DNA of 63,313 nucleotides, filler included, from Globobulimina sp. (lineage: Eukaryota): assembly GCA_003354225.1 (NCBI GenBank). It is 12 parts of 12 records of this genome, joined end to end, with 100 filler letters (N's around TTAATTAATTAA, not from the genome) between each part and the next. Parts side by side here need not be neighbours in the genome. Positions count along the whole stretch, not along the records: positions 15,894 to 21,087 come from PIVH01000677.1; positions 21,188 to 26,377 come from PIVH01000678.1; positions 26,478 to 31,660 come from PIVH01000679.1; positions 31,761 to 36,937 come from PIVH01000680.1; 8 more parts are not named here. One strand, given 5' to 3'. The position numbers and the translations under genes were made by a program. Each line of letters begins with the position of its first letter. Position 1 is the first letter of the stretch. Positions 9,501-37,353 of this stretch are shown piece after piece. The notes under the pieces were generated by a model. That model saw nothing but the letters and a program-made list of their open reading frames with translations. It made no database searches and was not told the DNA's origin.

Positions 9501-10499
9501 ATCGAGAGCAAATCGAAGAGTAAATCAAAGAGTAAATCTGGGCTGGTTTTGAAATTAAAGTTGAAATTGAACCTATCATCCAATACAAGTAAGGGATCGA
9601 TGGCATCTACGTTAGGGCCATCGGCCAGTGTTGGTTTGAATGATGACGACGACGTAGCAGTGCGTGGTGGTGACACTTTGGTCGCCATTGACAACCCCGC
9701 CGATGCAGAGGGCATTGAATATGTTATCGCGTCACCCACAGAAAACGTATTAGAACGGTTCAATTTGCAAAATGATAAATTGTTGTTATTGGCTGAAATC
9801 CAGCGATTACGGAATATAATAATGGTACAGAAACATGATATGGATGGTATGGAGAATGAGGTGGAGCAATTGCACGAAAGTGTGGTGGATAAAGAAGAAC
9901 AAACCAAAGCGTTGCGGTCCACCAATGTGTCATTGAAGAGGCAAAATAATGAGTTGACTGATAAAATAAAGCAGGAAATGGATAGCAATGCAGAGTTGAA
10001 GCTAGATAACGAGCGCTTGAATGGATTGGTCCGTATGCGTGACGACGACGATGATGATGACCATGATGAGTATGACTTTGTGTATGATGACGATTCACAG
10101 AAATCGTGGAGTATGGTGCCACGGTTTCCGTCGCAGCCATTGACGGACATTCCGTCGCAACCATTGATGAAATCGAGCAAATCTGATATTTCGTTGGTGT
10201 CGTTTAAAAATTTAATAGCGCCGGAATTAGTCCATCATAGCAATAGCAGTGGCAACATGCACGGAGAGGGTAATAAGAAAAAGAAATTTGACGATTACAC
10301 GCAAATGACGCAGTTGAAGAAGAGTAACACGAACACGAACTTCAAAAAGAAAAATAAGACCTTTCAACGTCCGAAATATCATTCATTCGCATTGGGTCAG
10401 GCGAAAAAAGAGCGAATGCATAGATTACGCAATCAAAAACAAAAAAGCCACAACAATGAGGTGGAGGTGGCCTCGCCAGCACAGTCGCAGCCCGTTGAC
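6559..10499 (+). CDS. Multi-exon RhoGEF (DH-PH)-like protein with long low-complexity/coiled-coil tail, 3' partial
   Basis: DH-like start AEELFVKFLASLISTIIDPF; PH-like RRLML...FYIFNDMVLIC. Intron 7757-7818 joins ORFs in frame, with another intron near 7266-7343. Poly-Pro tract and coiled coil follow. Confidence 0.55.
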
Positions 10500-11993: not shown

Positions 11994-12043
11994 GGTAAAG
12001 ATAGCTGTTTGTCAGTGGCTGTTTTTTGTTGTTTATCCACACA

Positions 12044-13660: not shown

Positions 13661-13846
13661 TATTACGCGGTCTATTTTGCTTTACATATTATTTAGTTAT
13701 ACGCCGCACATTTATATATATATATTATTTTTTGTTTGTTTGTGTGTTTGTTTGTTAAAAAGGACCGGACCGCCGTCAGGACGAAGACGCAAACGTTTTT
13801 GGAACGTTTTTGATATAGGCGGAAAACAAATGCTTGCTTGCTTACC

Positions 13847-15364
13847 ATGTTTCCTTTCACGTTGGACAATTTTAATCACGAATTTGTTGAACAAGACACT
13901 ATACATTACAGCAGTCATATATATGGTTTGATAAAGGTGTTGACTGTATTAAACAGCCATGATCAATGTATAAAGAAAGCCAAAATAAGAAGCAATGATT
14001 GTGATGTTCTATTAATAAATCAAATTCTTACTCATAAACATGTATTTCATACAATTGAATCATTGCATTTTGATTTAATAAATTATTCAAACAGCGTTCA
14101 ATATGAGTCAAACGTAGCTGAATGCAAACATTTATTTCTATCGATATTACCAAACCTGCCATCATTAAAACAATTGTATGTTTCAATAACAACAGAAAAT
14201 TCTGCAGTGTACAAATCTTTTGTTGAATCATTTAATTATGAATTAAACAGTAATATGTATCCAAAATTGATTTTTTTCATGATTTGTCTCAATGTTACTG
14301 TTGCAAATGTTTCATTTAAGCCATTGTCAGGATTTATACGCAATCACTCATTCTATAAACTTGGCATTGAGCTGTGTTCAAGATCATGGCATGAGGTTAT
14401 TGAGGTACCTCCATTTAATAATTACTCTCAATTAATGCGTGCATTGGTTGACAAAACATCAAACTTAGAATATTTGCATATTGAAGCTTCGGATTATTCA
14501 GAAATTTCAGATATGGATGTGATATTTTGCAAATTTTTGGCAGCCAAAGGAAATCAGTTAACAACATTCAAATTTCATGCAAATACTTTAATGTTTGATG
14601 CGATTCCTGATGAAAGCTCACTTTGTTTGATGCGAGCAATGGCAAATAATTTAATCAATGTTGATACGTTATCTTTAGATTTAAATATAAAAGAGATACA
14701 ATACTTTGTTGAATTATTGAATGCTTTATGTAGTTTACAAACGTTACATTTGAAGATTCCGAAGGAAAATATATTTGCAGTGGATGATATCGGCAAATTG
14801 TTTCATGCCATTTCAAAGCATGCAGTACTGAGTGATGTTACACTTAATAATATTTGGTTTCATGTTTTGTATATTCAACAACTTGGTCAGTTATTCACTA
14901 ACTATAATTTAAAGAAATTAAGTTTGGAGCTAAGCCCTGGGATGTCATGGAATTGTCGAACGATAACAGATGAACAAACTGCATTGGTGGAAAGCAAAAA
15001 AAATAAGGGTATCGGCACCAATATTAAGCAAATAATAAATGATAATATTATTGTGAAATTATTAGAGAATCAAATATTGTATGATTGTGTGATTGAAACA
15101 ATTGAGATGCAATTAGAGAGTGTATGGAATTTACCCAAAATATTTGTATCACAGATATTACAATATATGTTTGGAACAAGTCAATCCAATAAAATGGTGC
15201 TTTCTGTGTCAAAATATAATGCATTTGGAGCAGAACAATATGCGTGGAAAATTGGTGACGAATTTGAAGAAATGTGGAATGAAATATGGAAACAATACCA
15301 AATTGATAACAATGCAGCTCACGATTTTCATAGGGAAGTGCAAGCAGAGTTTAGTTGGATGTAA
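13847..15364 (+). CDS. Hypothetical RNI-like leucine-rich-repeat protein
   Basis: Repeated LxxLxL motifs (LPSLKQLYV, NLEYLHI, SLQTLHL, LKKLSLEL). Confidence 0.55.
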   Translation: MFPFTLDNFNHEFVEQDTIHYSSHIYGLIKVLTVLNSHDQCIKKAKIRSNDCDVLLINQILTHKHVFHTIESLHFDLINYSNSVQYESNVAECKHLFLSILPNLPSLKQLYVSITTENSAVYKSFVESFNYELNSNMYPKLIFFMICLNVTVANVSFKPLSGFIRNHSFYKLGIELCSRSWHEVIEVPPFNNYSQLMRALVDKTSNLEYLHIEASDYSEISDMDVIFCKFLAAKGNQLTTFKFHANTLMFDAIPDESSLCLMRAMANNLINVDTLSLDLNIKEIQYFVELLNALCSLQTLHLKIPKENIFAVDDIGKLFHAISKHAVLSDVTLNNIWFHVLYIQQLGQLFTNYNLKKLSLELSPGMSWNCRTITDEQTALVESKKNKGIGTNIKQIINDNIIVKLLENQILYDCVIETIEMQLESVWNLPKIFVSQILQYMFGTSQSNKMVLSVSKYNAFGAEQYAWKIGDEFEEMWNEIWKQYQIDNNAAHDFHREVQAEFSWM

Positions 15365-18161: not shown

Positions 18162-19496
18162 TTATTTTCGATTTTGAATTTGTAAATGACTCATTATTGA
18201 CATAATAGTTTCCCATCTATGAGATAACATTCCAGCTTCACCGTCACATTTACCAACACCATGATTGAATATCGTAGTTCCTGCACCAACAAAACCCATG
18301 CAACCGCCCTCTTTAAGACTTCGCACCACCATATGTGGCAACATATACTGATTTTTGCGATGTAAATGTTGTTTATGAGCCCATCCAAACGTTTTAGTTC
18401 CATTTGCTGTTTCAAATAACTTATATAAGATTGTTAACTTTGAAAACATTGCATAATCAATATGTCCACCTAAAGCACGGTTTAAATAGTATAAAAATCC
18501 AACGGAATCTGGTATACCCAAAGAAAATCCGTTTGCAGTAATAATCATTAGCGTTAATAAAGCAACTTTAATCATACAATCCCGCTCATATTCATTAATA
18601 CATAAATCATTCATATCCAATATGTTATATATTTTCTCGCCAGCTTCATTAAACCCAACACCATTACCTCCATTTTTAGTATTTATTTTTATTAATTTCT
18701 CTTTGCTTGATGGTTTATAGTTTTTGTTAAAATGAAACGTTTGCGGGGATTTGTTGTATAAAGGATTGGTTTTGGGACACATTTGTTTTGTGTTTCTTTT
18801 GCATATTTTGACAAGTGTCTTCAACATTCGCCCGGAAAGCACTGGATTGTTATATGAGAAAAATAAAAGTTGCCCAGTCACACAATACCAACTACAATGA
18901 AAAATTTTACCATAGAAACACTGTTTCAATGTAAATATTTTAGTGAAATGTAATTGGTCTAAAATATTGTTTCCGATCATTGATAATTTAAAGGTAAATA
19001 AGTTGGTTTCATGAGCACTTAACTCGCCACGTGATTTTCTCTTTAATCCGAACCCGTCAACGAAATGTAACGTGTTTGTATCATCCCCTTCATATCCGAT
19101 ATACGCAAACGATTCCATATCCGGTACACTCGTTGAGTCGAGTTTTATTTTTCTTTTGTAAATTGCACATTTTTTACACGTTGAGATACCATCAAAGCAA
19201 TGTAACAAAATCAAACAAAGAAAGCAAGACCTTCTATCACCAGAATGCTCCGGTTGTAAACAATACATTTGCCATGCTTGATACTTAATGGTTGTGCCGC
19301 CATGATATATGAAACAATAAACTGCATCTCCTGGATTTTTTTCTGTTTCATAAACAAAAATGTTATGCCGTAATGATGGATCTAATGTTACCCCATGTTT
19401 TACCACCAACATTTTCTCATTTTCAGTTAATTTGTGTGATGGTCTGATTTCAATTTTATTACGACTACGACGACATACAAAAGATCCATCCTTCAT
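18162..19496 (-). CDS. Divergent AlkB-like 2OG-Fe(II) dioxygenase
   Basis: IPDSVGFLYY...LGGHID (HxD), SLKEGGCMGFVGAGTTIFNHGV (distal His) and MLSHRW (C-terminal Arg) occur in AlkB order. Confidence 0.55.
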   Translation of the reverse strand: MKDGSFVCRRSRNKIEIRPSHKLTENEKMLVVKHGVTLDPSLRHNIFVYETEKNPGDAVYCFIYHGGTTIKYQAWQMYCLQPEHSGDRRSCFLCLILLHCFDGISTCKKCAIYKRKIKLDSTSVPDMESFAYIGYEGDDTNTLHFVDGFGLKRKSRGELSAHETNLFTFKLSMIGNNILDQLHFTKIFTLKQCFYGKIFHCSWYCVTGQLLFFSYNNPVLSGRMLKTLVKICKRNTKQMCPKTNPLYNKSPQTFHFNKNYKPSSKEKLIKINTKNGGNGVGFNEAGEKIYNILDMNDLCINEYERDCMIKVALLTLMIITANGFSLGIPDSVGFLYYLNRALGGHIDYAMFSKLTILYKLFETANGTKTFGWAHKQHLHRKNQYMLPHMVVRSLKEGGCMGFVGAGTTIFNHGVGKCDGEAGMLSHRWETIMSIMSHLQIQNRK

Positions 19497-20394
19497 TTCT
19501 GTCCTCGCGATAGGATTGTGAAATGTAATTGGTTCGGCAAATTACTCTCTTTTGCGGTGATAATTGTTGTGCTAATTGTTGTGATAATGTTTTAAAATAT
19601 AAAAAGCATTGTACTACAAAGGGATTACTATAAAAATAATTGCGAGAGTTTATGACTTCAGTCGGTAAATCTTTATGATACAACGAAATCAATTGCATAA
19701 CATCAATATCACTGCGAAACTCATTTGATTGCCATAAAATATTGCATGCAATAGCTGTTGGGTACGTCATCTCCTTTTCCTTTTTGCAAATAAAAGTAAC
19801 AATATCTAAATCATCTGACCTGCAACGTTTGTACTCACTCCAGATACCAACTCGATAGTCCGCAGTACTTATTTTTAATCGTATCGACTTAAAATGTTTA
19901 CTAAATCCAGACCCAACTGAACTGTCATTCATAAGTCTCTCTAAATCTGTTTTTGCTGAACTTAACGTTTTATTTATTTTTGACCGTACGTCACGACTAA
20001 ATCGATTGAGTGGATATCTTTGTTTCCATTTAATGATTTGGGCATGTTGATAAGCAAAAAAATCTCTACATTGTTGACGTGTTTTCTTTGGTGTTGCATC
20101 TATTAATTCTATACTCTCTAATGCGTGACATACTACACATAATGTATGCCCACTTTGACAATTTTGACTACAACTTGCCACATCCTTACAATCTTCACCT
20201 TCACATTTAGTTGAGCCATAACATTGTGTTCCACATTTGCTATATTTATATTATAAAAAAAATGAAATTTTACTATTTTTACATCAAAGCAATGCACTTC
20301 TTAACACAAAAGCATCCATGGTTTAGCAAACAGTTTTTTAGATCTTTTTGATAATTGAATAAACTCGCTATAGTAAATATGGGTTCTTGTTCAC
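19465..20394 (-). CDS. Cys-rich hypothetical protein (multi-exon; 5' end not located)
   Basis: Intron 20240-20282 joins the upstream exon in frame: ...GCFCVKKCIALIKCGTQCYGSTKCEGEDCKDVASCSQNCQSGHTLCVVCH. Confidence 0.5.
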
Positions 20395-21427
20395 CTATTT
20401 AAAAGCATACAAACATAAAAAGAGTTGGCATACTCACTTAAAAAAACACAGACACACAAAATAAAACAAGTATTCACACAGAAAAATGTATATTGTCATT
20501 AGTTAGTTGAGAATGGTGTTTAGTGAATTAGTTACACGCTTAAGTGCACGTTGTAGCGTTCAATGCTAAAACATCAGTACTCCATAATACTCAGATGATT
20601 GCTGTCTCTTTCAGTACAGAGGCAGTCCACATCTTTGCATATTGTTGTTTATAGTTTGAAACGAACGGAGAAACAGAGAAACAATATTTGTTAAGTGCAA
20701 GGATATGGTTTAACTTTGTGACCTATTTAACCCATTATTGTCCATTTATTGTTGCGCGCGAAGCATATCAATTGAAATTAGTGGATCAATGTCGTCGATT
20801 GCGAGATTGAATATGGCTTTGATTCTGGCACTGGTTCTCTGTTGTAGTGTTGTATGACCACCAAGTTGTACTCATTATGATGCAATATACGTAGAAAGGT
20901 TACATAGCGTTCAAATTCGATTTGATGTCAAGACAACATCGTCTTCACTTTGATTAATTAAAGTTTTTAAATTTTAAGTTTTTCAAATTAAGATACACTA
21001 ATGGCACGCACTAAAAAAAAAAGCATCACGCTAAATCTAAGAATACGATGCAATCAAACGCAGTTTAGACCGCCTACAAAGTGGCAANNNNNNNNNNNNN
21101 NNNNNNNNNNNNNNNNNNNNNNNNNNNNNNNTTAATTAATTAANNNNNNNNNNNNNNNNNNNNNNNNNNNNNNNNNNNNNNNNNNNNGAGACTAGGCTTT
21201 GGATTTCAGCAGTCATCGAAATTGGCAGTATGCGTATCTTCTCTCGATACTTTAATTCCACGCGACATCATTTCCTGTAAACCTAAAGCATGGATCGGTA
21301 GACGTTTCCAGATAATATGAGTAAAATTTAAGTTCCTGGAACGACCTAAAAATATGTGAATGTAAATCTAACAGATTAAAATATATTGTTATCTCACTGT
21401 TGCCTTAATGTGTGTTGTCAATGTTAA

Positions 21428-23310
21428 TCATAGAAACGAGATATCGGGAAAGATGAATGGAGTCGGTTTGTTATCAAATTTCTTCAAATTACGAGACTTA
21501 CAATGTGATAGAAACTTAGCTATGTCAAATCGTGATAAATCATCCGCATACAAATTCTCTTTTGTTTTAATGTAATTAATTTTAACTCTTAACTTATATT
21601 CAAAACAAAACCACACAGTCCATCTAATACAATCCATCAAAAACATATCATTCGTGTTTTTCGAAATAAAAACAGCTTCACAGTGCTGATTATCACATCG
21701 TAAATTGATATCAATATTCGGTTTAAAATAATTTTTAAATGTCCAAAGTCCAGCGACAATGGCTAAAGCCTCAAAATGTGCGATGTGTTGTTCTTGTGTA
21801 TATAACATCGTTTTGTTAACATCTAAATACTTCGAATAGATAGTCATAAATTGTGTAGGTACAGTATCAAATGCCCAATGACCTTCAAAGTACGCGCCAA
21901 TCCCAGGCTGCCAATTGGGTTTCTCTCCATTTGTCGCTCCATCCGTATAAAGATTCACTTTCGGCCTATCTCCATATCCAACGACATCATATACATTTAC
22001 TCGATCACAGATATACATATATTTTATCCACAAATTTGCATCTTTTATCTCATGATCACCGAAATACATCAAAGTAGTTTCGTCGCCGTATATTCGTTTA
22101 TGAGCAGTCATTTTCATTCTCATTCTACGTAAAAATGCTGTCCCCGGCCACATTAATGCTGCCATCCACGTTAATGTACCCATTAACGACTCATATTTGT
22201 CGCTCATCAGCATTCTGCAGCTAACTATAATGATCAAAATAAGTAAACATTTCTTCTTTTTATCTGGGCCGGGTCCTACTGTCATGTCTGTGGAATCATA
22301 AATTAATCCACAAACCTCCATAATCCATGACACTAATTTCCTTTTCTCCTTTTTTTCAATGTATCCGCACGAATTAATAAATTCAAAAAATTTGTTCATA
22401 ATAAACGATTCTCGTTTGCGATTTGAAAAAGGATACGATTTAATAAATCCAATATGGTCATCAATGTAGACCAAATTTTCGATTCTTTCATTATAAAATA
22501 AAAAGGGTCGAATCCATTGTTTGAAGGCTAATAAAAGTACATTCCCAAAGTCTTGAGAATGTTTAGACGCTCCTTTGCTTCCATAGATGTCACACGTGTC
22601 CACCAAATCGATGCCCATAAACTTATAACCCATATACCTCCATTCACTCCGTGCCATTCCTAATTGTCTGAAGGCATCGGAGCCATCAGTTTTAAACATA
22701 AGACAGTATCTGCCCATAATAATTAGTTGATTGCAGAAGTCTTTACATAAAGGAACCTGCATTTTAAAATCAATGGGAGCTGTTAACTCATTAATGCTGT
22801 ACGTCCATAACGATGAGAACGTCGCATGTCTGCAAATCCGTGCCTTGCTATTTCTTCTCGTCCACATTGTAAGCGGTCCACCAGTCTTTTTGTCGACTGC
22901 TACTAATTGAATAAAATTAAGAATATTTTCATTGTCATCTAATAATGCACTTTTTGGGCCAATTTTGCCTAATTCCATCTGTTCAGCCAAATTAGTGCCA
23001 ATTTCAATCAATTCCAAAACATTCCAATCTTTCATCCTTTTTACTTTATCATTCATGGGAATATTGTAATTGTTTGTTATTCCAAGCTTCCATCCATAAT
23101 TAAGGCAAATTAATGTTTGATTAATCAAAATATGCAATTTTCTGTCATTTATTATTGGAATTTGTTTGATTGCATTGATTAAAAATGAATTATAAGGCTC
23201 TTGATGTAATTTTGAATTTTTATATTTAAAATTCTTGCATGCCTTTTTAAATCGACATTTTACTATATCCCACAAGATATTGTTCCAAACTGTGGGATTT
23301 GTATGTAATG
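21428..23310 (-). CDS. Reverse transcriptase-RNase H (DIRS/Ngaro type)
   Basis: RT motifs KTDGSDAFRQL, IYGSKGAS, VYIDDHI, CGLIYDS and SLMGTLTW. RNase H motifs LYTDGA, GIGAY, HIAHFEALAI, LRCDN and ENLYADDLSR. Confidence 0.92.
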
Positions 23311-23843
23311 CTATGTAATTTGATACAAATTATCATAAATTTCTAATCTCACGATCTCGTTTCTATCATCCGGGACGATGTTGAAAGAGAGAGATAAATG
23401 AATTAAATGTTTACGCTGCGGACGTAAACTATGAATGTAATGACATAATAAAATAACGTTTGTTACAATCCGTTGGTGTGACTTAACGACTTAGTGCGGT
23501 TTTTACAAATAAAGTTAACTAAACTTTTTGAGTAAAAGTAAAATACTAAAAACGAGAAATAAAAGTTACTATACCTCAGTTATACAATACTGTGATAAGT
23601 AATATAAAATGATAAAATAGGCTCCCCCCAAAGCCTGTATGTTAATAAAATGTAATAATTCTAAAATAGTAATTTAAGAAATAAAAATGTCCACAAATCA
23701 AATACTAATCACCACAAATCAAATACTAATAAATTAATATATAAATATAAGTGTTGATTACTATGTACACTTTGAATAAAATTAAAAGAAAATAATAGTG
23801 TAATAAAATATAAAATAAATAGCAGATAAAATTCATGAATAAA

Positions 23844-26377
23844 TCAACGTCCATAGCCATAGACATTGCCACTTCCACGATGGTCACATTTATTTGATAG
23901 ATGTTTGTCGACAATAAAACAAAAACGACACATGTGATGCCAATCACATCTTTCATGCGATTGGCTGAAATAACATCTTCCTTTTTCATGAAAATTACAA
24001 ATGTATTGAACTAATTCTGGACCACCATATAATGCGCCATTTTTAACGTGGTAACAATTCATTTTTTGTGTATTTACCGGTTTCTTTCCTGCATATCCAC
24101 CGTTGCCATATTGATTATTTTGATGATTTTCTTCCACTCTTTGTCGTTTATATGGTCTTTGATTTGAATTCTGATCATATTGCTGTTGTTGTTGTGGTGG
24201 TTGTTGTGGCTGATACATATGTTCATATTTCGATGGATTATAATTTCCTTGGCCTTGGTTACTATAATTACCCCGACCGTTACCTCTATAATTTCCGCGG
24301 CCGTTTCCTCTTCGATTTCCACGTCCATTTTGTTGATAATTTCCTCGATGTCCGCCACGATAATTCGGTTGAAAATTATTTCCTTGATAGCCGCCTCTCG
24401 CATTGCCACCATAATTATTGTCATCATAGTTACTTCTGTGATAACTACGATCACGTCCACGTCCACGAAAACCTCTTCCTCGTCGTGGTCTACGTCGTGG
24501 GATATATTGCGGTTTTACTGTTTCTGTGTTGTGGATTGGTTGCGATGTTGCGGCTGTTTGTTGTACTTTGATTGCCGCATTGTACGATCGTGTCTCAATG
24601 CTATTCTTGTGCTCATTGGAGATAATGGACAATTTCCATTCATTTAATGTGCTGCGATCACCTAAATTCGTCCCGGCACTCACTCCACGTTTAAGCACCG
24701 CCTTTCTTCTCTTCAATAAAAAGTGATTGAAGGCTTTTAACCCTTCATTGCCAATTAAGTTTGTGCTGAGTTCATTTTGTACGAATTTCGCCAATTTCAT
24801 CCATTGTAATCCGGCTGCGGTTAAATATGCACTTTGTATTAATGACTCTAAATTTGTGCCTTTATTACGATGAATGTCTGCTAATTCAGTTATTGATGTC
24901 GATATCATCATAATCACTTTGTACGTCGCATTGTGATCTTCTTTGAATGATTTGATTGCTGAATCTATATTGGTGTGATTTTGCGACCAATTTATATCTC
25001 CTGTTAATGCCAAATAACGTAATATATCATTTAATGGCGCTCCTCCTGTTGTGCATAATCGATAATATCCAATTTTGGCCGACGTGCGTTTTTTGTTTGA
25101 TATGTTGCCATTGATCTCATTATTTAATTCATTTTGATCTTTTTGATATTCCATAAATTGATAATAATCTAAATTGGGGGGAATTAAGGGGATTATTTTT
25201 AAAGTATGTTAAAATTTGTACAAAATCAAATTACGCACTTTTACAAAAACGGATATCTGAAAAAACGGATTACGAAAAAAGCAGATTACTGAAAATGGAT
25301 AAATTGCACACCGAAAACACCGTTTTTATGCACTGACAATACATTAAATTGACAGAATATACACACAATAACATAGACACAGAAGATGTTATACATACTC
25401 TTCATTATCGAATGTTTAATGTCTTCGTCCGTTACATGATTACCACCGTATTTTTGCATTAATTCGGTGAAACAAATTGTATCTTCTTCGTCGTCAATGC
25501 CCGGATGCATAAAACTGAGGCCATCCACTAAGGCAGACTTGTTATTCGATTCTAAGTCGTTGTTGACTCTTTGTTGTATGTTCTTGGCGTTGGTCACCAA
25601 ATCATTGTTGAAGTTGTCATTTTCTATGTTCACATTACCATCGCGGTCAACTGTGCGACGACTACGTATATTCGTTGCTAATTCACGTTGTTTATTACGA
25701 TTGTTTAATTTATCTAATAATGATGATTTCGATCCTGTTGTCCCAATTCTGCCCCTTGCAGTATTACCGCCATTGCCAATTTTATGCAAATTGTCGATCC
25801 ACGAACTTCCTGTTTGTTCTTCTGTTTTGCTCTCAAACTCAGTTTTATCGCTCGTGAGATCGATGTTGGTGTTTTTGTTGGAATTCGTGTTGTGCGAATT
25901 GTTGGTATTCGACCTTGGCAATGAATTCAAAATCTTCTCTCTGTATAGTTCAAATTCTTCCGATTTATTCAGAGGATCTAATAATCGCTGAATCAATGCG
26001 GCCAATTTTGCAAAATCTGGCTTGAAATTTGATACTTTGTACGATACCGAGGTTTCTGATAAGCCGAAGTATAAATACATCTTCGCCTTCGGTGTATTTT
26101 TATATGTTGTGTTATTTGAATCACTCACAAATTGATTAAATTGATTTATCATCGTATTCCATGTAATTCTCGCAAAATTACAAAATTGATTAACTTGTTC
26201 TTGATCATAACTCGTCGGATTGCCTCGTGCTGAAATTAATAAGTTTTCCATGACTTGTAGTGATGCAAAGTCTTGCTGTTGAAAATAATCAATAAGCGTT
26301 GCAGCAATGATATTGATAGCCTGCGATTTGACTTTCTTTACAAAATCCCATTTAAAATCATCCGTTGAGTCCGGGAA
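23844..26377 (-). CDS. Gag-like ORF1 (exons 26377-25399 and 25168-23844), RGG-rich with C-terminal Cys/His knuckle, 5' partial
   Basis: Phase-1 intron 25169-25398 joins ORFs in frame; RG/NYRG repeats; ICNFHEKGRC..ERCDWHHMCRFC..HLSNKC. Confidence 0.7.
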
Positions 26378-26562
26378 NNNNNNNNNNNNNNNNNNNNNNN
26401 NNNNNNNNNNNNNNNNNNNNNTTAATTAATTAANNNNNNNNNNNNNNNNNNNNNNNNNNNNNNNNNNNNNNNNNNNNCGTTTCTCCCACAAAACAAATTT
26501 TGTTACATTCACTCATCATAAATACAATTTTGATGATGAATGTGAGAATATGAATAAAATCT

Positions 26563-26636
26563 GCCCACTTGGTCTAGTTGGTTATGACATCTGCTCCACA
26601 CGCAGAGGGTCGCGAGTTCGAGTCTCGCAGTGGGTA
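26563..26636 (+). tRNA. tRNA-Val(CAC)
   Basis: Acceptor stem GCCCACT/AGTGGGT, D-arm, anticodon stem TCTGC/GCAGA with loop TCCACAC, T-arm GCGAG-TTCGAGT-CTCGC, discriminator A, and a T-run terminator just downstream. Confidence 0.9.
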
Positions 26637-26786
26637 AATTCTTATTTTTTTGAAAGCAAATGATCTCAATTTATTAAATAATCGGAAAGTAGGAGTGTGA
26701 AATGGCAAATATTCATAGTCTTTGAATAACTTATATTAATAAATCAAATAGTTTTACGTATGAGCAAGGAGTGACATTTTATACTA

Positions 26787-28878
26787 TCAGTCATCATCTA
26801 CAAAATCCTCTATGTGGTGATCTTGATTGCCAATTGCAATTCGAGTGTCTTCTTTGAAATTAAAGCTCTGTTCCATAATCAAATGTTGATGCGCTCCATC
26901 GATATTGACATCGTGATCAATCTCATCTTCTTTCTTTTTATCATCACCATCATCATCCGAAGCATAGAATGTCTTTACATTCATATCACTCCAAACATCC
27001 CACATTCCAAAACTCGACTGGCCTCCAATAATTAGTATCGATGATATGAGTCTTTTTGGAGCAAATTCAATTGTAAATATACCACCCGTCACATCATTAC
27101 TTTCTTCGCTTAATAATATCGGTTTCTTTTCTGGCTTTTCCTGATGCCATAATTTAATTTTTTTATCCAACGAACCAGTTGCAAATAAATCCGATTTATC
27201 CTTATTAAATGACAACGAAGTCACTGCTTTTCTGTGTCCTTTTAGCCGCCATATTGATTCGTTTACATTGATCTTCCGGATATCAAAACATTCAATGTAT
27301 CCATTATCTAAACTGCAAACAAAGAGGTTATCATTGCCCGGATGCCAGGTCAATGTCTCAATTTCGCCCAAAACAGTCCATCGCAGTCTGGCTTTGTTTC
27401 TTTTCCGCGATCCTAAGAGGCTAAGATCCGATAAATATATATTTTTATCAAACCCTCCGCTTAATAGTACAGTCGGATCATTGGGTTTCAATTTAATTTG
27501 TTGCACTTTGCCACTATGATGATTCGCCGTATTTACACATTTCCTTTTATTCAAATCCCAAATTTTAATACTTTTATCGCTAGAACCACTAAATAAATAC
27601 GAATCATTTGATTTACTCCAATCTAAACACAACACAGCATCGGAATGTGACCCTTCTTTCAATGAACCTAATGTCATATTTTTCTGTTTGTCGTCCATGT
27701 CCGTATAATTGAACATAATGTCTTCATTCCATTTGCTTAATAATTGCAACCCCTTTTCATTTGCCATTCGACCGCCTAAACAACAGACTGGTTCCAATGC
27801 GTCCATTACATCCAAATTAAAGATCTCTATGCTTTCCTCCACACTCCCAATGGCTAATAAATTGGTACCCAAGCTATTGAATGATAGCCATTTGCAGCAT
27901 AACGGGAAAGCAGCCAATGTAATGTCATGATGCTCGTAAAAAGTGCGTAATTGAGTATCAAATACATTTACTTGCATAGAGGAGGATTCCCGGTCAGCAT
28001 CACAGCCCAAACATAAAAATATTTCATCTGTTGGCTTAATGTGAATGTCCTCAATTTCTGAATCATTTGCTGTGTCATAAATATTTTCGGCGTTGATAAT
28101 TCTAAGTCTCTTTTCTTTTGATCTGTTTTTTCTCTCTGAACTGTAGCTATAATCAATCGGACCAATGGCAATGCCGCCCTGCAAACCGCCGATTCGTGAA
28201 ATAAAATCTAACGCTAAAGTATAAAAACGGTATTTATTTTACAAAAACGAAAACAAAAAACATACGTTGATCATCATATCCTTCCATAACTGCCTTGGTA
28301 AAATCTTCCTCATTTTCAAAATCTATCAATTGTTCCTCATCTGATTCTTCCTCATCTTCCTCATCTTCCTCTTCTTCCTCTTCTTCCTCTTCTTCCTCTT
28401 CTTCCTCTTCTTCCTCTTCTTCCTCTTCTATCTGGTCAGTTTTGTGTTTTTTTGTGTTGGGATTATCTGAGTCAACTTTTTGTAAATCACTGTATTTGCG
28501 TTTGCGCAAATTGCTAGATTGAGATTCATCTTTTTTGTTGGTGTCGTTATCGTTGTTCTCTGTGATATCAAGGTCTTCATTTGTATCGATATCATCCTCG
28601 TCCAAGAATTGTTCCACTTTGTCTTCATTGACAAGCTTAGAATCATCAATGTTATCGTTGGAGTTATAACTTTCGATACCATCCTCATTTATTATTTTAA
28701 TATCATTTTGATGTATTTGTTTCATATCATCCTCGTCCAAGAATTGGTCGGCTGTGTCTGCATGGACAGGCATAAAACGATCAATTTTGACTGGGAGATG
28801 TTTAATTGGAATTGCATGTGTTTTGTCTGGCCATTCTTTGGCTGCATTTGGGGGAAGCCAAGTTACACAAGTTATCAT
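26787..28878 (-). CDS. PWP1: Periodic tryptophan protein 1 (WD40), two exons
   Basis: MITCVTWLP start, acidic tract, IKPTD, FYEHHDITLAAFPLCCKWL, LDVMDALEP, HSDAVLCL and WD40 repeats. Intron 28208-28265 is in frame. Confidence 0.9.
28345..28428. repeat. (TCTTCC)n coding microsatellite (poly-Glu of PWP1)
   Basis: Visible tandem hexamer. Confidence 0.9.
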
Positions 28879-29029
28879 GGTTCAAGTGAAAGTTTTCGAC
28901 AATTTAGAGCAAAATTTAAAATACGTTGTAACAAGATAAATCATTTGTTGATACAGTAAACGAGTGATGTATTTGCTTAATAGCAAAATTAAATGCAGGG
29001 TTCATGCATTATAGTGTAGTATTTTTATA

Positions 29030-29395
29030 TCAAAGAATTGGATGAATATTGTATTCATCTTCCATTTGTTCCCAATCAATTTCTGTGTCATACTGCTTTA
29101 CATCTAATTCCTGTATAAAATCTTGCAATAAATCACCAACTCTTTGTACTCTGCCACGGAACTGATCCATCAAAGCTCCCATATCATTGTCATTCATTAA
29201 GTGTTCAAATTGTTTGAAAACATAATCATAGGCCTCTTGTGCATCGTAATTACGATAATTGAGTTCATCATAGTAATTACGATATAAACCAGCGATGAAT
29301 TCATCAATATCATTCTCTAATTCCTGCTCATCTCTCTCTAAGCTCTGTTCTAACTCTCCAATTTGTGCAGAAGTGTAGTTAAATTTATACACCAT
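29030..29395 (-). CDS. Small acidic hypothetical protein
   Basis: 121-aa ORF with helical, coding-like composition. Confidence 0.45.
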   Translation of the reverse strand: MVYKFNYTSAQIGELEQSLERDEQELENDIDEFIAGLYRNYYDELNYRNYDAQEAYDYVFKQFEHLMNDNDMGALMDQFRGRVQRVGDLLQDFIQELDVKQYDTEIDWEQMEDEYNIHPIL

Positions 29396-29925
29396 TTCGT
29401 CTGATTATTAAATTTCATTTGCTTACATTTAAAAAAATAAAGATGATCATTTAAGGATACTAAACTGTTAAGTTTGAAAAAGTCGGGTATTTCAACCAGT
29501 ACAGCCTCTATATTCAGATTTTTACGATCGGAGCTGAGAATGTCCGATAATCTTCGGGTATTTTGTAATAATATCAAATCCAAAACACTTCCTGTCATCA
29601 TCATTAAAATTGAGAAAAACAATAATTGCAATTTGTTCAATTTATATTGATATTTGTTTTTTTTTGAGTTTAATTTATTGGTTCGCGTGGGATGACTACT
29701 CAATTTTTTTGAATCCGAATCAATAACAACTGATTGCAAAAAATATTCAACCAAATTAATTATAAGCTGTGTGAAGAGATCAATAACGGTTATGCATCGG
29801 TACTGATTCCGTAGTTTCATTGTTGCAAAAATGTTTTTTAATTTTAGTTCGGCGGAACTGTTTTTTAATTAATAGTTTGGATTCATAATTAACATTTTCA
29901 CAGCTGCAGAATCTGATAGTTTGGG

Positions 29926-31104
29926 TTAATAATCAGTTTGATTGCGTTCATTTGCAAGCCGGAGGTTGAGTTTAAACTCAGCAGTATGTGCTTTTCCATG
30001 GGTTCTATGTGTCCCAATATGAAAAGTTAAATTCTCAGAAGATTGAAATGATCGAAACCTTGCAGATCCTTTCATTCCTTGGTATGCCAAACTCACTTCT
30101 TTCCTCATAACACTTCCAATGGGTCCAAATCCAATAAAAGTATCTCCAAAGCTCATATTTGCGAATTTTTCTCTTTCAAATACGAAACAATCAAAGCCAC
30201 GATGGACCGCTCCGTTTGGTATCTCTTGATATATTTGATCCATTATATAGTCCTCAATACTTTTGTTCTTGTATTTATTCTCAACTTTCATGTCTTGCAT
30301 CAGATCTGCTGTGTTTTCAAATATTTTTCGAAATAAAATTTCTTTGTCAATGCAGCGTCTGTTTATGGTAAATCCTTTATATCCATCAATGATAAATTGC
30401 GCGATTCGAATGTAAAAGTTCAATGCAACGCCAATGTCGAAATTGGTGTAGATTATAAAATGACCATTGGATGCATAATTATGTGCAGATTGCAGGATAT
30501 CGTGAATGAATGGAATGTTGTTGATAAGCTTGCCTTTTTTCAGTTTTTTGGCAAATTCGGGAGCGTCAAAATACTCGGTTTTAACTGTTCTGTTTAGGTG
30601 AGGTTCTAAGATAGTAACTCCATTTGGAATGATCTCATCATCCTCTTTCAAATGGGCAGAACATAAACTTATGTTTAGTGAAAATAATATATTTCTGTGA
30701 ACATGTATTTTGCCCATTGCCTCTTTCTTTGCGTTTATCATTGACAAAAATGTATATGGTCCAGCGTAATATAGATAGGAATTGTGATCTTTATTATGCT
30801 TCAGATTTAAAGCATTGGTCACATGGCATATTGATATATGTACCACTTCGGCATCAATTTGTTTTGCAGAAACTGAGAGGGACATTGTATTTGGTGATTC
30901 TAAATCTACGTTAAAAAATACCAGAATTGTTTCATAAAATACCAACGCTAATACAGCCAGAAATGTTGCAAGGAGCTTGTATAGTGATAATCTACAACAA
31001 ATGGGTTTCGCTGCCATGCATGCAATATTTAGTACGTTGTAATTTAAAATGGAATGAAAACCTAGCTGATCATCACGGGTACTCACAATAGTAATTGTCA
31101 TCAA
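29926..31104 (-). CDS. Type II membrane protein, putative glycosyltransferase-like
   Basis: N-terminal TM anchor; IPFIHDIL, IIYTNFDI, TINRR, HRGFDCFVF, FIGFGPIG and TFHIG motifs. Confidence 0.5.
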   Translation of the reverse strand: MMTITIVSTRDDQLGFHSILNYNVLNIACMAAKPICCRLSLYKLLATFLAVLALVFYETILVFFNVDLESPNTMSLSVSAKQIDAEVVHISICHVTNALNLKHNKDHNSYLYYAGPYTFLSMINAKKEAMGKIHVHRNILFSLNISLCSAHLKEDDEIIPNGVTILEPHLNRTVKTEYFDAPEFAKKLKKGKLINNIPFIHDILQSAHNYASNGHFIIYTNFDIGVALNFYIRIAQFIIDGYKGFTINRRCIDKEILFRKIFENTADLMQDMKVENKYKNKSIEDYIMDQIYQEIPNGAVHRGFDCFVFEREKFANMSFGDTFIGFGPIGSVMRKEVSLAYQGMKGSARFRSFQSSENLTFHIGTHRTHGKAHTAEFKLNLRLANERNQTDY

Positions 31105-31660
31105 TGAATTGTGTTTTTTGTGGTGTAACCATAACGCAATCAGAATTCCAGACTGTATTACTTAATTCATGTTGATAAAAATAAGCAAGAATTGCTGTTT
31201 CCAAGTTATATGACGCATTTTGTTTCTTAAATCTCAACTCTCGCACTGTTGGTGATTTCCATCGCTTCCATGAGTGTTTATCAGGCTTAACTAAAATTCC
31301 TGTATCCCATAATTTAACTTCATTCCAAGCATCAACTGTCGAATTGGCATTGGATACCTTTACAGATATCGATGATAAACCATATTTAATTAATTCTCTA
31401 TTATTTACATTCAGGAATTGTGATAATATATCAATATATTTGTTGTTATTCACTGATAAATCATCATAATCCACCATAATCCAATATTTCTGTTTGATTT
31501 TTTGCAATTGTTGATCAATGATCATGGTTGCATTATATTTAGTTTTTACTCTTTGTTCACAAAATCCAAACCTATGAATACAGGAAGAAACCATAACTTT
31601 TACCCATTCACGTTTTAAAACAATATATCTCAAATCAATGTGATTATCGTTCCTTTCTTC
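31073..31660 (-). CDS. 3' part of hypothetical protein (possibly sulfotransferase-like)
   Basis: Open frame from near contig edge; WIMVDYDDL motif only. Confidence 0.3.
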   Translation of the reverse strand, partial: EERNDNHIDLRYIVLKREWVKVMVSSCIHRFGFCEQRVKTKYNATMIIDQQLQKIKQKYWIMVDYDDLSVNNNKYIDILSQFLNVNNRELIKYGLSSISVKVSNANSTVDAWNEVKLWDTGILVKPDKHSWKRWKSPTVRELRFKKQNASYNLETAILAYFYQHELSNTVWNSDCVMVTPQKTQFIDDNYYCEYP

Positions 31661-31760
31661 NNNNNNNNNNNNNNNNNNNNNNNNNNNNNNNNNNNNNNNN
31701 NNNNTTAATTAATTAANNNNNNNNNNNNNNNNNNNNNNNNNNNNNNNNNNNNNNNNNNNN

Positions 31761-32431
31761 TGCTGGGGCTGAAGCCACACCGTACGGTTGCTTACGATCT
31801 CTAAATCTGAGGCCAAATAATGAGTATCCAATGTAATCCGCATCTTCTTTTGGTAATGGAACTTGTCTGAAGAAGTCAGCTAAATCCCTCAAAGCAAAGT
31901 AATTTTTATCAATTAATAATTTTATGTATTGGATTATATTCGGTAAGTCTTTCATTTTACATTTTTCTTTATTTATCCATTGATTTATAGCCGTTTTACC
32001 TTTTTCGTGATATGATCCATTTCTTATCACTCTTACTTTGGTGTAAAATCCATTTCCGTCCTTTTTAGGTGTTCCAAAAATCATACAGTAATATTTTGCA
32101 TTATGATAAATTGGCTCAATTTGTCCATTTTTGACTTCTTCTGCTAATTTGTCAATAAATGCTTTTACGTCTTCTAAGGAATTTGCTATGTTATTGATAT
32201 TTGTTGACAGTTCGAGAGGTGATAAAGGTATGCCATTCGAGTCAGTTTTATTATGGGTATTAAGAAATAATGGAAATCCATTTTCAACATATTTTATAAC
32301 AAGTTTTGAATTCTGTTTTGTTTTTAAGTATTTTTTAAATTGTTTTATGTTTAAATTATTTTTGAATTTAGAACCTTCGCTATGTAATTTTTGAAGATTT
32401 TGTAATTTTTGGGCACATTCAGGTGATATTT
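31761..32431 (-). CDS. Reverse transcriptase, N-terminal half (truncated by contig end)
   Basis: YVENGFPL, IFGTPKKD..KVRVIRNGS, AINQWI, LRDLADFFRQVPL, GYSLFG and QPYGVASAP. Confidence 0.88.
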
Positions 32432-32737
32432 CTGAGTATAAGACAGAAATAAAAGTTAAGAGAAAATTACGCCACAACCACTGCGACAATTTTATAGAAC
32501 TTATTAATATATTTAACAAGATTTAAATTTTAAAGAAGATATATATTATTAAATAAGATTAAATTAAGAAATTTTAAATTGTTGGAATAAAGTTGGAATA
32601 TAAAAAACATTAATTAGCAAATATCAGAATTCGTTGATGATATTCAAATTGCAGCACATTTGAAGATATTAAATATTAATAAGAAATTTTGATAATTGAC
32701 AGTTAAATTTGTTACATTCGAGGCAGAATTTATTTAA

Positions 32738-35700
32738 TTACAAAGTAGGACATTTGCATAATGGATGATTGTCTCTTGGATGTAAAATACAATTATGATC
32801 ACGTTGACATTTATCGGCTCCTTTATAGCATGAATCATCTGCATTGAATGCTGCACATTGACGTGATTTGAGGGAATAATATTTCCCGGTTCCTCTCAAT
32901 AAATTTTTACATTTTTTTACAGCTAAAACTAAGACATTTTCCTGATTATTATTCGAACGATCATTATTTGAACGATCATTATTGCGATTATACGAACGTC
33001 TAAATTGTTGATCGTAATTACGATCATTATCAGAATAATCATTATTGTTTTCACTATTCATTCGATTGTAATTCCTGTCATAGTTTCTATTATTATTTCT
33101 ATTTGAGTCTTGATTATAATTTCGGCGATAATTATTCTGGTTAGGTTCATTTTGATGGTAAGTACCTTTTTTATTTGTGTCTCTATGTCGACGATCACGA
33201 CCATGTCGATGACGATAATTATTTCTATATCCTTGATTATGGCGAGTCTCATTTAATTCTCTTTGGCGGTTATAATATGGATCATTGTCTGCTGAATCTC
33301 GAGGTACACCATGTTTTTTCTTGTCTTGATTCTTATCATTTTTTGTTGTTTGAATAGATTTAATTTGTGTTTCAGCGCTGCTATATTTGTTAAATGTATT
33401 CGATAGAAATATATCCAAAGTTATTTTGCTGTTTTTTATACGATGATTATTCATGAAATTGCTTGTAAATATTACTGTAAAACATTGATTTTTTACAATT
33501 GCATCAGAAACACCGCTATCTACCCATGCTGCCATTAAATGGGGATCAAATTTTGTATCTTTTACTGAATATAATAATGTTTCCATTAATTTTTTTAAAT
33601 CATATGATTTATAATCAAACCATATACGGATCAAACGATATAATTCAGCTTCTTCAAAATCTTTCGGTATTAATTTATTAAATTTAATATTTAAATTATT
33701 AATATATTCTCTAATCCAACCAAATGTATTATAGATATTCCATTTATTATTAAATAATGATTTTAATTCAATTGAGAAATTTTCATGTAATAATTTGCAT
33801 TTTTTATTCATATATTTATTAATTTGATACATTAAGTTAAGAAAAGAAAAATCTTCGTCAATTGTGCCAGTTATAAACATTATTAAATCTGCTTTTATTG
33901 AGAGAATTATTTTTGATGTTAATACTGATTTAATATTGGCAGAAAGTGCTGGGGATTGCAATAATGCAATATTTGACATTGTTACATTTCCTTTAAAAGT
34001 TTAGATAACAAAATTTTTAATAAATTATTAAATTGTGTGGTTGCGGTGAAAATAAAAATTATTGATTTATAAAACAAACAAAGTTGAACTAAAATTAATT
34101 TGTAAGAAAGATTTCAGTCAAATCAAATCAAAAAAATTTAATAGCATTCAATTTGCGAATATAAAACGAATAAAAAATATTTTAAAATGTGTAAATGTAT
34201 ATATATATACCTTCTAATTGGCGGACAATATCTTTATTCGTTAATCTTTGGCCATTAATGCCAACTTTTGCATTTATCAAATTATTGACTAATACAACAT
34301 TTTTATTGCGATTATTGGTAATTGCTACATCGACTATTTTTAAAATACATTCTTGTTTCTTTTGTTTATCGATTACTGCAGCAATCATATCATTTGTATT
34401 AATTGAAATTAATTGATTTTGATTTGATTTATGTTCATTCCATTCAAAGGTAGGTTTCTTTGAATATTCTCTTCTATCTAAAGCTTGTTTTAATTGATTA
34501 AATCTTTCTGTTACAGATGAATTTATTTGATTTGTCATATTTAATATGTCATTTTGTGTTAATGGCTTGTTTGTTGTTGCTACAGTTAAAGGATTCGTAG
34601 TTCTCCGTCTTCTTGAATCGGGTTGGAATAAGTTGTCAAATAAAGGGGTACAATGATCTGGTTTTGGTCTTACACGCGATTTGGGGGAGAATTTGGTAAT
34701 AATTAAATGTGGGATTTTACGATGTTTAAGTATTGTTTTATATTTTCTTAAATTTATGATACAGCCATCATTGTCAATTATTCCTGTTTCAAAAAGTTGA
34801 TTTCGGACATAAGGTAATTGTTTATTTAAATTCGTAAATAATATATTTAAATTCTTTGTTTTTGCAATGACAGCAATATGTTTATGGATTGGAGATGATA
34901 CAGGCATCGAAGTGCTGAAATTAAATAAATAAATATTTGCTAATATGGCAATTAATAATTGTTGTCTGTATAAATCCGAATCATTGTTTAATATATTTAA
35001 TGTTTCGTCAGTTACTGAATCACAGAAATTTTCAAAATTGGTTTTATTTGTTATGTCACTTGTTGTAAATATAGGGAAAGAAGGAGAATGTATGGTATTT
35101 GTTCTTGATGCTGCTGATCTAACTGTACTCGTTGTGGTTGTTGCAGTTCTTACATTTGTTTTTGTGGTCGAAGTTGGGTTATTAACATTCGTTGTTGTTT
35201 GGGCTGTACGTTGGGCTGCTTTGGGATTTTTAGGTTTTGTTTGTGTAGACGACTGGGTTGACGTTGACTGATTTTTATTTAATGGATTACTATATTTATC
35301 AATATCTGGTAAAGGAAGGCCGGGAATAATAGGATTAGTAAAAGAGAAATCATTGTCAAATGAATATGATAATCCAATATAGTTTGGATGTTTAAAGTTA
35401 TCATTCTCCGCATTCTTAACTTCTTCTTGGGAATGGGATAAATTTAAATTTATTATATTACTATTTTTATTTGTTAATAATAGGTCTAAGTAATTAATGT
35501 AATCAAAAGAAGTGTTATATTTATATTTTACATTTTTTAAATTATTAAACTCTGCATTGGACACTGGTTTTGCGACAGAAAGTATTATGTCATTGATTGA
35601 GCGATAGGTATTATTGTAATCGCAATATTTGAATAAAGTATTAAGGAATAATTTCATTGATTCGAATGCCGTGCGAGTTTTTGCTGGAATAAAATAAACT

Positions 35701-35966
35701 TTTGATAAACCGGATTTTAAATAATATAATAATAATACTATTTCAATTTGTGTTAAGTAATTAATTTTATCGGAATTTGAGATATTGGAAGGTTTTGATT
35801 TTAGGACATTTTTACGGAAAGATATTATCCAATTTGATTCATTAATTTTTGCAATTTGATCTGCTAATCTTCCGTATAATTGTATTACATCAATTTCACA
35901 AAATTTTACTGGATCGGTTATGAATGTGTTTACTTCTTCTTCGATTTCATTTTTATTTGATGTCAT
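32738..35966 (-). CDS. Gag-like ORF1 (exons 35966-34211 and 33990-32738) with Asn/Arg-rich region and Cys/His knuckle
   Basis: Phase-1 intron 33991-34210 joins ORFs in frame; C-terminal QCAAFNADDSCYKGADKCQRDHNCILH..HPLCKCP. Confidence 0.7.
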
Positions 35967-36800
35967 TTTATTTTTAATTTTAATATGAATATATATTTCG
36001 GGCGTTGAGAAATAAGGGGAAGTTTAGTTAGTTTGTTTAAATTTGGAAGTTTGCTAATTTGCTAATTTGTATGTAGATGACTTTAGTTGTTTGGGTGTGA
36101 TTTCCTATCACTTATTCTTTTTTGCAAGGGGTCTGGTTTAAAGAGAGAGGCAAAAAAATTTGTTGAAGTTCAGTTCAAAGATAAAAAACTTCACTTCAAC
36201 AACAAATAAAAACACACTTCACACAAAGTCATTATAAGCAGAATAATTGCACTACGATTATTATTATGATTTATACAATTCCATAAATCTTGGTGCTTGA
36301 AATATGAAGGTGATAACATTAACATCACCACCGATAACGACATCGATGAATCAGAACAAGATTAAATACTCCATGATAAATGCAATCAATTCCATTTTAG
36401 TTAAATTAGGTTCTTTGGGTGTTACTGAAAGTGAAATAATCGAAGGTATTAAATCTATCGCACTAATCGCAGATTGCAATGTTGATGGTATTGTTGCAGT
36501 ACACACAAAAAGATTATTGGAATAGTAATAATGTGGATGTTATGAAAAGTAGAGCGAGTGGTACACATTTACGTGAATGGTATACCGGTTTAATGCATAA
36601 TATAGCAATCATAGAATGTTTTTATTATCATTGTAATTATATTATGTATTCATTTATATTGATATAAACATGGTATTAACCATATAATATTTATAATTAG
36701 TATATGTTTTGTAAAGTCCTATCAATATATCAACGTATAAATGATAGTATCTTGCGACTGATATAGAGATTTAGACCAATGAAGTCGAGAGTATTTAAAT

Positions 36801-36842
36801 CGTTGTGACGTTTCGGTCGAAACTATGACCTTTACGAACACG
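36801..36842 (-). ncRNA. Possible minimal hammerhead-ribozyme-like motif with variant core
   Basis: Minus strand reads CGTGT-TCGTAAA-GGTC(ATAGTTTC)GACC-GAAAC-GTC-ACAACG. Confidence 0.3.
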
Positions 36843-37353
36843 TTTGAGTTTTGTAAATTAAATTAGAAAAAACACTAAGTTCCACACTCACAAATAGTCA
36901 AACACACAATTCCAAGTTCAACGGAATTTAATTTGTANNNNNNNNNNNNNNNNNNNNNNNNNNNNNNNNNNNNNNNNNNNNTTAATTAATTAANNNNNNN
37001 NNNNNNNNNNNNNNNNNNNNNNNNNNNNNNNNNNNNNATTTCACCACAAACTCACAATTACTCCTTTCATAATTATATTAAAAATATAGTCAGATGCGTC
37101 TCCATATATCTGACGATGGTATGGTTACCACACCAAACATCAATATAGATTACAAAAATTATGCATATGAGGCGGGCAGATTTTAAACTGCAACATCGTG
37201 ACAAATTGATGTGAAACAATGGTTTTTGTCTTCTTTCTGTGAAAACCTCCCAAGCAAAAAAAGTGTCTTATTTGCTACATACAATCTACAAATGACTACA
37301 ATTTAGATGTTTTAGTTTTATATGCTACATTATGTGAAAAGGAATATATTGAA

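Follow-up and report, generated by a model that had tools for sequence, protein, structure and literature searches.

One candidate splice donor and several phase-1 acceptors in two divergent tyrosine recombinase retrotransposons of Globobulimina sp.

How does a retrotransposon translate a reverse transcriptase (RT) whose open reading frame (ORF) lacks a start codon near its 5' end and is separated from the ORF upstream by non-coding DNA? Translation of downstream ORFs is poorly understood in retrotransposons with a gene for a tyrosine recombinase (YR), and the question is raised by two such elements, here called A and B, in a stretch of 63,313 nt from Globobulimina sp. (assembly GCA_003354225.1). 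This stretch, which we call the window, consists of 12 pieces of ~5.19 kb joined by spacers of N. Element A is the piece at 21188-26377 and element B the piece at 31761-36937; each is encoded on the minus strand and truncated at the piece ends, and the layout of the window bears out the first-pass annotation in placing them on separate pieces.

The combined features of A and B are best explained, as far as any single explanation goes, by one donor and several in-frame acceptors that would be alternatively spliced, a reading to which we give slightly less than an even chance. It is favoured because start codons are missing, the phase of the candidate sites is uniform, an acceptor position is conserved, and the only consensus donors are placed where this reading needs them. 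The full-length transcript would be the template for reverse transcription and would translate ORF1 only, and a single phase-1 5' splice site, placed where ORF1 ends, would be joined alternatively to phase-1 3' splice sites a few codons into the downstream ORFs. The products would be ORF1-gag, ORF1-RT/ribonuclease H (RNase H) and, in A, ORF1-YR fusion proteins, with splicing doing the job of the frameshifting or ORF overlap seen in other retroelements. Unspliced RNA is proposed as the template because the intervening sequence is kept in genomic copies A and B.

Reading frames and candidate splice sites

For each element the first-pass annotation had described a phase-1 donor where ORF1 ends and phase-1 acceptors ahead of the gag-like and RT ORFs. 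A site-by-site check of the sequence of A found its donor and both acceptors at the same positions and in the same phase, and the donor and two acceptors of B proved equally accurate. A third phase-1 acceptor in A precedes the YR ORF. The parts of element A are listed here, with a slash marking each candidate junction.

25399-26377, minus strand: ORF1 (proposed exon 1), an open frame truncated by the piece end at 26377
25398-25393, minus strand: donor GTATGT, phase 1; exon 1 ends AAG A at 25399
25169-25398, minus strand: proposed intron 1, 230 nt, from GTATGT to the AG at 25170-25169
23844-25168, minus strand: gag-like ORF; acceptor aatttag/AT, AG at 25170-25169, phase 1, exon from 25168
23311-23843, minus strand: non-coding gag-to-RT spacer, ending in the RT acceptor AG at 23312-23311
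21428-23310, minus strand: RT-RNase H ORF; acceptor tacatag/CA, AG at 23312-23311, phase 1, exon from 23310
21209-21347, minus strand: start of the YR ORF; acceptor AG at 21347-21346 after catattttt, phase 1, exon from 21345 (GT)

Element B is represented by ORF1, the gag-like ORF and the start of RT only, its YR region lying beyond the piece end.

34211-35966, minus strand: ORF1 (proposed exon 1), 585 aa, ATG at 35966
34210-34205, minus strand: donor GTATAT, phase 1; exon 1 ends GAA G at 34211
33991-34210, minus strand: proposed intron 1, 220 nt, from GTATAT to the AG at 33992-33991
32738-33990, minus strand: gag-like ORF; acceptor tttaaag/GA, AG at 33992-33991, phase 1, exon from 33990
32432-32737, minus strand: non-coding gag-to-RT spacer, ending in the RT acceptor AG at 32433-32432
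31761-32431, minus strand: 5' part of the RT ORF, truncated by the piece end; acceptor ttatactcag/AA, phase 1

Proposed intron 1 of A contains the tail of ORF1 with its stop codon (25288-25286), has a GC content of 0.30 and holds 2, 4 and 7 stops in the three frames; that of B has a GC content of 0.18, stops numbering 6, 3 and 7, and the ORF1 stop at 34184-34182. Counted over 23846-23311, gag stop included, the gag-to-RT spacer of A is 536 nt long with a GC content of 0.25 and 8, 13 and 14 stops per frame. Its counterpart in B is 309 nt long with a GC content of 0.21, and the two together show 5-14 stops in each frame, in keeping with the AT-rich non-coding DNA reported between gag and RT at first pass. 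Across all spacers of A and B, lengths run from 85 to 536 nt and GC content from 0.18 to 0.30, with stops in three frames; the ORFs have a GC content of 0.27-0.37. Because every spacer carries stops in all frames, readthrough and frameshifting between ORFs are ruled out.

The RT-RNase H ORF of A encodes 633 aa, including YIDD and, at the end of RNase H, a DxLSR motif. Its first methionine is residue 92 and that of the B open frame is residue 147, so the absence of an ATG near the 5' end of either RT ORF stands as first described. Pyrimidines fill 16 of the 20 bases preceding the B RT acceptor AG. The YR ORF of A starts 85 nt after the RT stop and is present for its first ~46-50 codons, the piece ending at 21188; no ATG lies ahead of its conserved start.

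Phase, position and conservation of the sites

At six of six ORF starts (gag, RT and YR of A, gag and RT of B, and the RT of L001, a related metagenomic contig), the AG nearest the conserved start with the best pyrimidine tract falls in phase 1, which is also the donor phase of both A and B. For a control, 29 host ORFs of at least 200 aa were scored: phase 1 made up 42% of all their AG dinucleotides, and 12 of the 29 best-pyrimidine AGs within the first 30 codons. Five independent phase-1 acceptors would then arise by chance at ~0.42^5 = 0.013, a post hoc and approximate figure.

On the sense strand the pattern GTA[AT][GA]T occurs eight times in A and three times in B. The hexamer GTATGT is single on the A sense strand, 37 codons before the ORF1 stop, and is also the donor hexamer of both host introns identified in the window; the GTATAT of B lies 9 codons before its ORF1 stop. 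The chance of a donor falling within the last 40 ORF1 codons is estimated at ~0.18 for A and ~0.07 for B, figures likewise post hoc and approximate. Alternative donors near the gag end, from which gag could be fused to RT, were also considered, and were rejected because neither phase fits the phase-1 acceptors: GTAAAT at 24077, the only consensus site there in A, is in phase 0 of the gag frame, and GTAATT at the gag stop of B is in phase 2.

Similarity to relatives begins where the candidate exons do. The RT of B resembles P0064 and P0145 from residue 31 onward, which is the first codon past the acceptor, and the alignment of A YR to P0156 begins at the acceptor. The architecture is common to A and B despite an RT identity of 24%.

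The sole related locus from the metagenome scan, L001, is a contig of 2414 nt whose RT is 40% identical to A RT. Only one AG lies between its upstream stop and a conserved Pro, in the same phase as in A and at the same distance from the Pro (two bases and four codons), and conserved RT residues lie upstream of its first ATG. Viral contigs gave no related locus with A-type RT, B-type RT or YR as queries, nor did prokaryote genome contigs with A-type RT or YR. No YR ORF is present in the 400 nt after the L001 RT stop (2010-2414); in A the YR ORF starts after 85 nt. An RT of L001 type (P0003) and a YR (P0154) are each recorded on an 8492-base ENA contig and are probably from the same one; the YR of the L001-type element (P0154) must lie further off or elsewhere on the longer contig. 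P0157 is recorded on a contig of 8243 bases.

Genomic copies add a smaller piece of evidence. In DNA run X1, 211 contigs align on A, the element for which this was counted, and 147 of them are <90% alike. Over the ORF1 region of A the contigs sum to 2-3x the depth of the exact copy, so ORF1 belongs to the repeated element. One diverged X1 contig keeps both splice-signal motifs: its alignment runs as far as 25393, where GTATGT ends, and picks up again at 25170, the first base of the AG. This break, read from a summary table and seen in a single contig, fits conservation that ends at the candidate donor and not at the ORF1 stop 105 nt on, and we give it small weight.

Element A shows other features around its RT ORF. 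A 16-nt inverted repeat (15/16 complementary; 21427-21442 and 23354-23369) brackets the ORF, one arm lying 42 nt ahead of the RT acceptor and the other over the RT stop; about 0.5 such pairs per 5 kb are estimated to occur by chance. The gag-to-RT spacer contains, at 23409-23429 and 23679-23720 on the minus strand, a perfect stem of 7 bp closing a loop of 7 nt (gtttacg..cgtaaac), together with a tandem duplication of 21 nt, and a comparable small stem (aaacacg..cgtgttt) lies 3' of the RT stop in L001, near 2250-2275. On the minus strand, a GTAAGT at 21496-21501 lies 24 codons ahead of the RT stop and is in phase 1 relative to the RT-RNase H ORF. Splicing from this hexamer (21501-21496) to the YR acceptor at 21347-21346 would give an in-frame RT-RNase H-YR fusion through an intron of 156 nt. 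The residues after it (K-S-R-N-L) resemble those after the YR acceptor (R-S-R-N-L), with different codons. The tail of the RT frame is taken as coding because it is conserved in relatives.

Other routes to translation

Several observations weigh against alternative splicing from one donor. An ATG stands at 25154-25152 in the gag of A, five codons past the acceptor, and another at 33979-33977 in that of B, four codons past it; we put the chance of both being so placed at ~0.01, which suggests that gag may initiate on its own. The introns implied for RT and YR of A would measure 2088 and 4053 nt, and that for RT of B 1779 nt, against 52 and 84 nt for the host introns, and every spliced product would bear ~590 aa of ORF1, which would be unusual. 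Fused RT proteins of 1109-3165 aa were sought with A RT and none was found, which is weak evidence. In many predicted RT and YR proteins of relatives the initial M falls 0-6 residues from the same N-terminus (P0017, P0007, P0008, P0012, P0063, P0145, P0158 and P0160 among them), and if these start residues are real, the family at large needs no fusion. The start M of P0003 aligns to a TTG codon in the near-identical L001, so the start Ms of relatives are not reliable ATGs and may be gene-caller artefacts. Copy A is itself not fully intact: an in-frame TGA at 21208-21206 interrupts its YR ORF, and similarity seems to resume in another frame. The statistics given above are post hoc, and they are no more than suggestive of signals beyond chance. 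Finally, a look-up of sequencing runs that contain the stretch listed one of unrecorded kind and none of RNA, and it is from the sequence that we infer the use of the sites, their alternative splicing and the role of unspliced RNA as template.

Some of these observations are what one would expect if no cis-splicing took place and the ORFs were separate cistrons, served by internal promoters, non-AUG starts or reinitiation, with the GT/AG signals coincidental. The ATG just past the supposed acceptor in both gag ORFs, the M at the conserved N-terminus of relatives' RT and YR proteins, the length of the implied introns for this genome and the fact that phase 1 is the commonest AG phase anyway (42%) all speak for such an arrangement. 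We nonetheless judge it unlikely, if the most deserving of attention among the alternatives, since no ATG precedes the conserved N-terminal parts of RT in A, L001 and B, or the YR of A; A and L001 share the position of the acceptor; the only consensus donors phase-compatible with the acceptors sit at the ORF1 ends; and the alignment of the diverged paralog breaks at the splice signals. That break falls exactly at both ends of the ORF1-gag intron, and this intron alone (230 nt in A, 220 nt in B) might be real, lying inside one long gag gene, with RT and YR expressed otherwise. It has the best signals of all (a donor of GTATGT or GTATAT and an acceptor rich in pyrimidines, with lengths that are close in A and B and the lowest GC content), and splicing between ORFs is known in the long terminal repeat (LTR) element Ogre (PMC3735527). 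An isolated ORF1-gag intron would leave the ATG-less RT and YR without a translation route, and would not explain why the phase of the RT and YR AGs matches the donor or why the RT AG is conserved in L001; we consider it improbable.

Chance signals in decaying copies would account for the same sites if A and B were dead and their start codons mutated away. The in-frame stop and apparent frame change near 21206 in the YR of A, the abundance of diverged copies (147 of 211 contigs <90% alike) and the post hoc nature of the statistics are compatible with decay. In AT-rich DNA, ORF1 (585 aa in B), gag (420-454 aa) and RT-RNase H (633 aa) otherwise remain intact, residues of RT and RNase H that are invariant in the family persist in A, and the same pattern recurs in three elements at 24-40% RT identity, all of which makes decay a poor candidate. 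Several eukaryote groups resolve polycistronic RNAs by spliced-leader trans-splicing. Trypanosomatids are a case in point (PMC6681497), and acceptors that resolved a polycistronic element transcript into single-gene mRNAs would explain why an acceptor-like site lies ahead of every downstream ORF. To account for the uniform phase 1, the leader would need to supply an AUG and one further base, a phase-matched consensus cis donor stands at the ORF1 end in both elements, and nothing in the window shows host trans-splicing (an Rfam scan gave tRNA only), so that we regard this origin of the acceptors as very improbable.

Alternative splicing from one donor carries a broader implication, which we advance more tentatively and hold to be rather doubtful as it stands: A and B may represent an old lineage of YR retrotransposons that makes all its downstream proteins (a nucleocapsid-like zinc-finger protein, RT-RNase H and the recombinase) as in-frame ORF1 fusions through one donor and up to three phase-1 acceptors, a strategy that would predate the divergence to 24% RT identity and have been conserved since.

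Placement, known systems and setting

The RT ORF of A, as a query against 1.84 billion representatives, matched 501 proteins at E<=1e-3, 31 of them with E<=1e-30. Among 42 aligned sequences (the A ORF and 41 of the 150 listed matches), Pfam RVT_1 was found in 22 and RT_RNaseH in 15; the A ORF itself has no Pfam model at E<=0.01, with RT_RNaseH at E 0.038 only. Against PDB sequences the A RT sequence alone gave no match, and the family profile was needed: its best solved relatives are 8r0s, 'Enzymatic polyprotein' (E 1e-25), and Ty3 RT (E 1e-22), ahead of retroviral RTs. A keeps the RT and RNase H residues that do not vary across the family, and the RT fragment of B is 24% identical to A RT and up to 48% identical to other members. 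The family carries an RT with an RNase H of the LTR-retroelement type, as elements of the DIRS order do.

The start of the YR ORF in A matches the C-terminal extension or YR part of P0006 (E 1e-3) and the N-terminus of P0156 (E 3e-4). Its relatives measure 273-466 aa, with PF00589 in 4 of 9, and their alignment contains the motifs TG[LM]R.GE, NSK, H.LRKG, RWK and Y.Y, which we take to be the catalytic residues of a tyrosine recombinase. The catalytic domain of the A protein would lie beyond the piece end, and its probable identity as YR is drawn from the first ~50 codons. Atlas look-alikes of the C-terminal part of P0006 are eukaryotic recombinase clusters, which we treat as a lead only.

A Pfam scan of the parts of A and B present found no integrase, protease or methyltransferase domain. 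The RT ORF of A ends at 21428, ~35 residues past DxLSR, and so without the methyltransferase of DIRS1-like and PAT elements; no ORFs overlap, all being parted by spacers of 85-536 nt. In A the order is gag, RT-RNase H and YR, without methyltransferase or overlap, as in Ngaro. Terminal repeats of the DIRS order are of ITR+ICR or split-direct-repeat type; a repeat search within each piece, the pieces ending inside the elements, found no terminal repeats and only short pairs such as chance would give. On domain content and order, A and B are distantly related members of one YR retrotransposon family of the DIRS order with a Ngaro-like layout; we call the layout Ngaro-like and not DIRS1-like because it has neither a methyltransferase domain nor ORF overlap. 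The first-pass label 'DIRS-like' holds for the order only, given the RT-RNase H and the YR start, the layout being that of Ngaro. Lack of the methyltransferase domain and of ORF overlap sets Ngaro apart from DIRS1-like elements, of which half of 28 have a long YR/pol ORF overlap (PMC3266345). Structure alone misclassifies YR elements, according to PMC4157794, and the placement given here rests on layout.

Ngaro elements share with A and B the gag-like, RT-RNase H and YR ORFs in one orientation, without methyltransferase or overlaps (PMC3266345, PMC3783388, PMC8547959), and have split direct repeats arranged A1-ORFs-B1A2B2. The A/B family differs in having a further long ORF, ORF1, upstream of the gag-like ORF with its zinc finger, in the non-coding spacers of 85-536 nt between ORFs, in the absence of an ATG from RT of both elements and YR of A, and in the presence of splice-like signals. 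DIRS1-like and PAT elements are likewise YR retroelements, with an RT/RNase H related to Ty3/Gypsy; A differs from them in having no methyltransferase after RNase H and its YR ORF 85 nt on, and in its lack of ORF overlap. The finger of A and B has CCCH spacing, whereas some YR elements have a CX2CX4HX4C box (PMC6681497).

ORF1 of A and B has no Pfam match, relatives or family that our searches found; B ORF1 has no usable Atlas match, and the gag-like ORF of A has no Pfam match. BLASTP detects no significant similarity between the two ORF1 proteins or between the two gag-like proteins. Both gag-like ORFs (420-454 aa) share a helical N-terminal half, a middle rich in R, N and G, and a C-terminal C-x7-8-C-x6-8-C-x3-H finger, the CCCH-type zinc finger being encoded at 23934-23999 in A and 32795-32857 in B; the predicted structure of A gag has a mean pLDDT of 35.8, and only its secondary structure was used. 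A T-[DN]-x-D-I motif is shared by A and B at the end of exon 1, just 5' of the candidate donor (25400-25450 and 34212-34265, minus strand), with a shuffling p=0.04 over the last 40 residues and no significance over longer stretches. P0029, a protein of a third relative, has its first 284 residues identical to the RT P0005; after them comes a tail with the same CCCH zinc finger, resembling the C-termini of A and B gag. Rearrangement of a copy, chimerism of the contig or template switching may account for it.

In retroviruses a major 5' donor is joined to several acceptors and unspliced RNA is the genome, and foamy virus Pol is made from a spliced mRNA. That donor is located in the leader or near the start of gag, and the genes downstream are translated from an AUG of their own. 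The arrangement proposed for A and B is alike in having one upstream donor, several downstream acceptors and an unspliced genomic RNA, and differs in that the donor stands at the end of an ORF of ~590 codons, so that every product would be an in-frame fusion. Splicing also controls expression in the LTR elements copia, BARE, Bagy2, CRR and Ogre, and in Ogre it takes place between ORFs (PMC3735527). In Ogre, copia, BARE and Bagy2 splicing of the element's own transcript sets the proteins made and unspliced RNA is copied (PMC3735527), much as sequence signals lead us to propose for A and B. Those elements have one intron each and a DDE integrase, whereas A and B, as YR elements, would use one donor with two or three in-frame acceptors.

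No title or abstract among the full-text search matches listed reports spliced YR elements; subscription journals and supplements fell outside the scope of that search. Surveys of the DIRS order describe overlapping and frameshifted ORFs. Introns go unmentioned in the available text of PMC3266345, PMC3783388, PMC4157794 and PMC6681497; splicing is not mentioned in that of PMC3783388 and arises in unrelated contexts only in that of PMC4157794 and PMC6681497. The DIRS-1 paper PMC7192593 has an artificial marker intron only. Splice-based expression in A and B is plausibly a known principle at work in a retroelement class where we have not found it described. If true, it would extend retrovirus-style alternative splicing to a third major retroelement class and would produce Gag-enzyme fusions by splicing instead of recoding, an equivalent of Gag-Pol frameshifting. 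The element would have to shield its genomic RNA from the spliceosome, and would offer a natural system for studying how an intron-retaining RNA is chosen for reverse transcription. Since neither ORF1 nor gag matches any Pfam model, and A RT matches none at E<=0.01, annotation pipelines for transposable elements would miss or split the family.

The genes on the other pieces of the window are of ordinary eukaryotic kinds and encode JmjC, pseudouridine synthase, SPRY, Sad1/UNC and WD40 domains. Two host introns, both starting with GTATGT, were read from ORF structure.

28265-28214: host intron, 52 nt
39353-39270: host intron, 84 nt

GC content across the window is ~0.26-0.45, with its maximum (0.447) in the neighbourhood of 8001-10000. 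Long ORFs of 459-1570 aa without a Pfam match at E<=1e-3 lie at 7815-10499, 12005-15364, 18162-19541 and 47592-52304. The sole Rfam/ARAGORN match in the window is a tRNA-Val (CAC) gene at 26562-26637 on the plus strand, at the start of the piece that follows element A.

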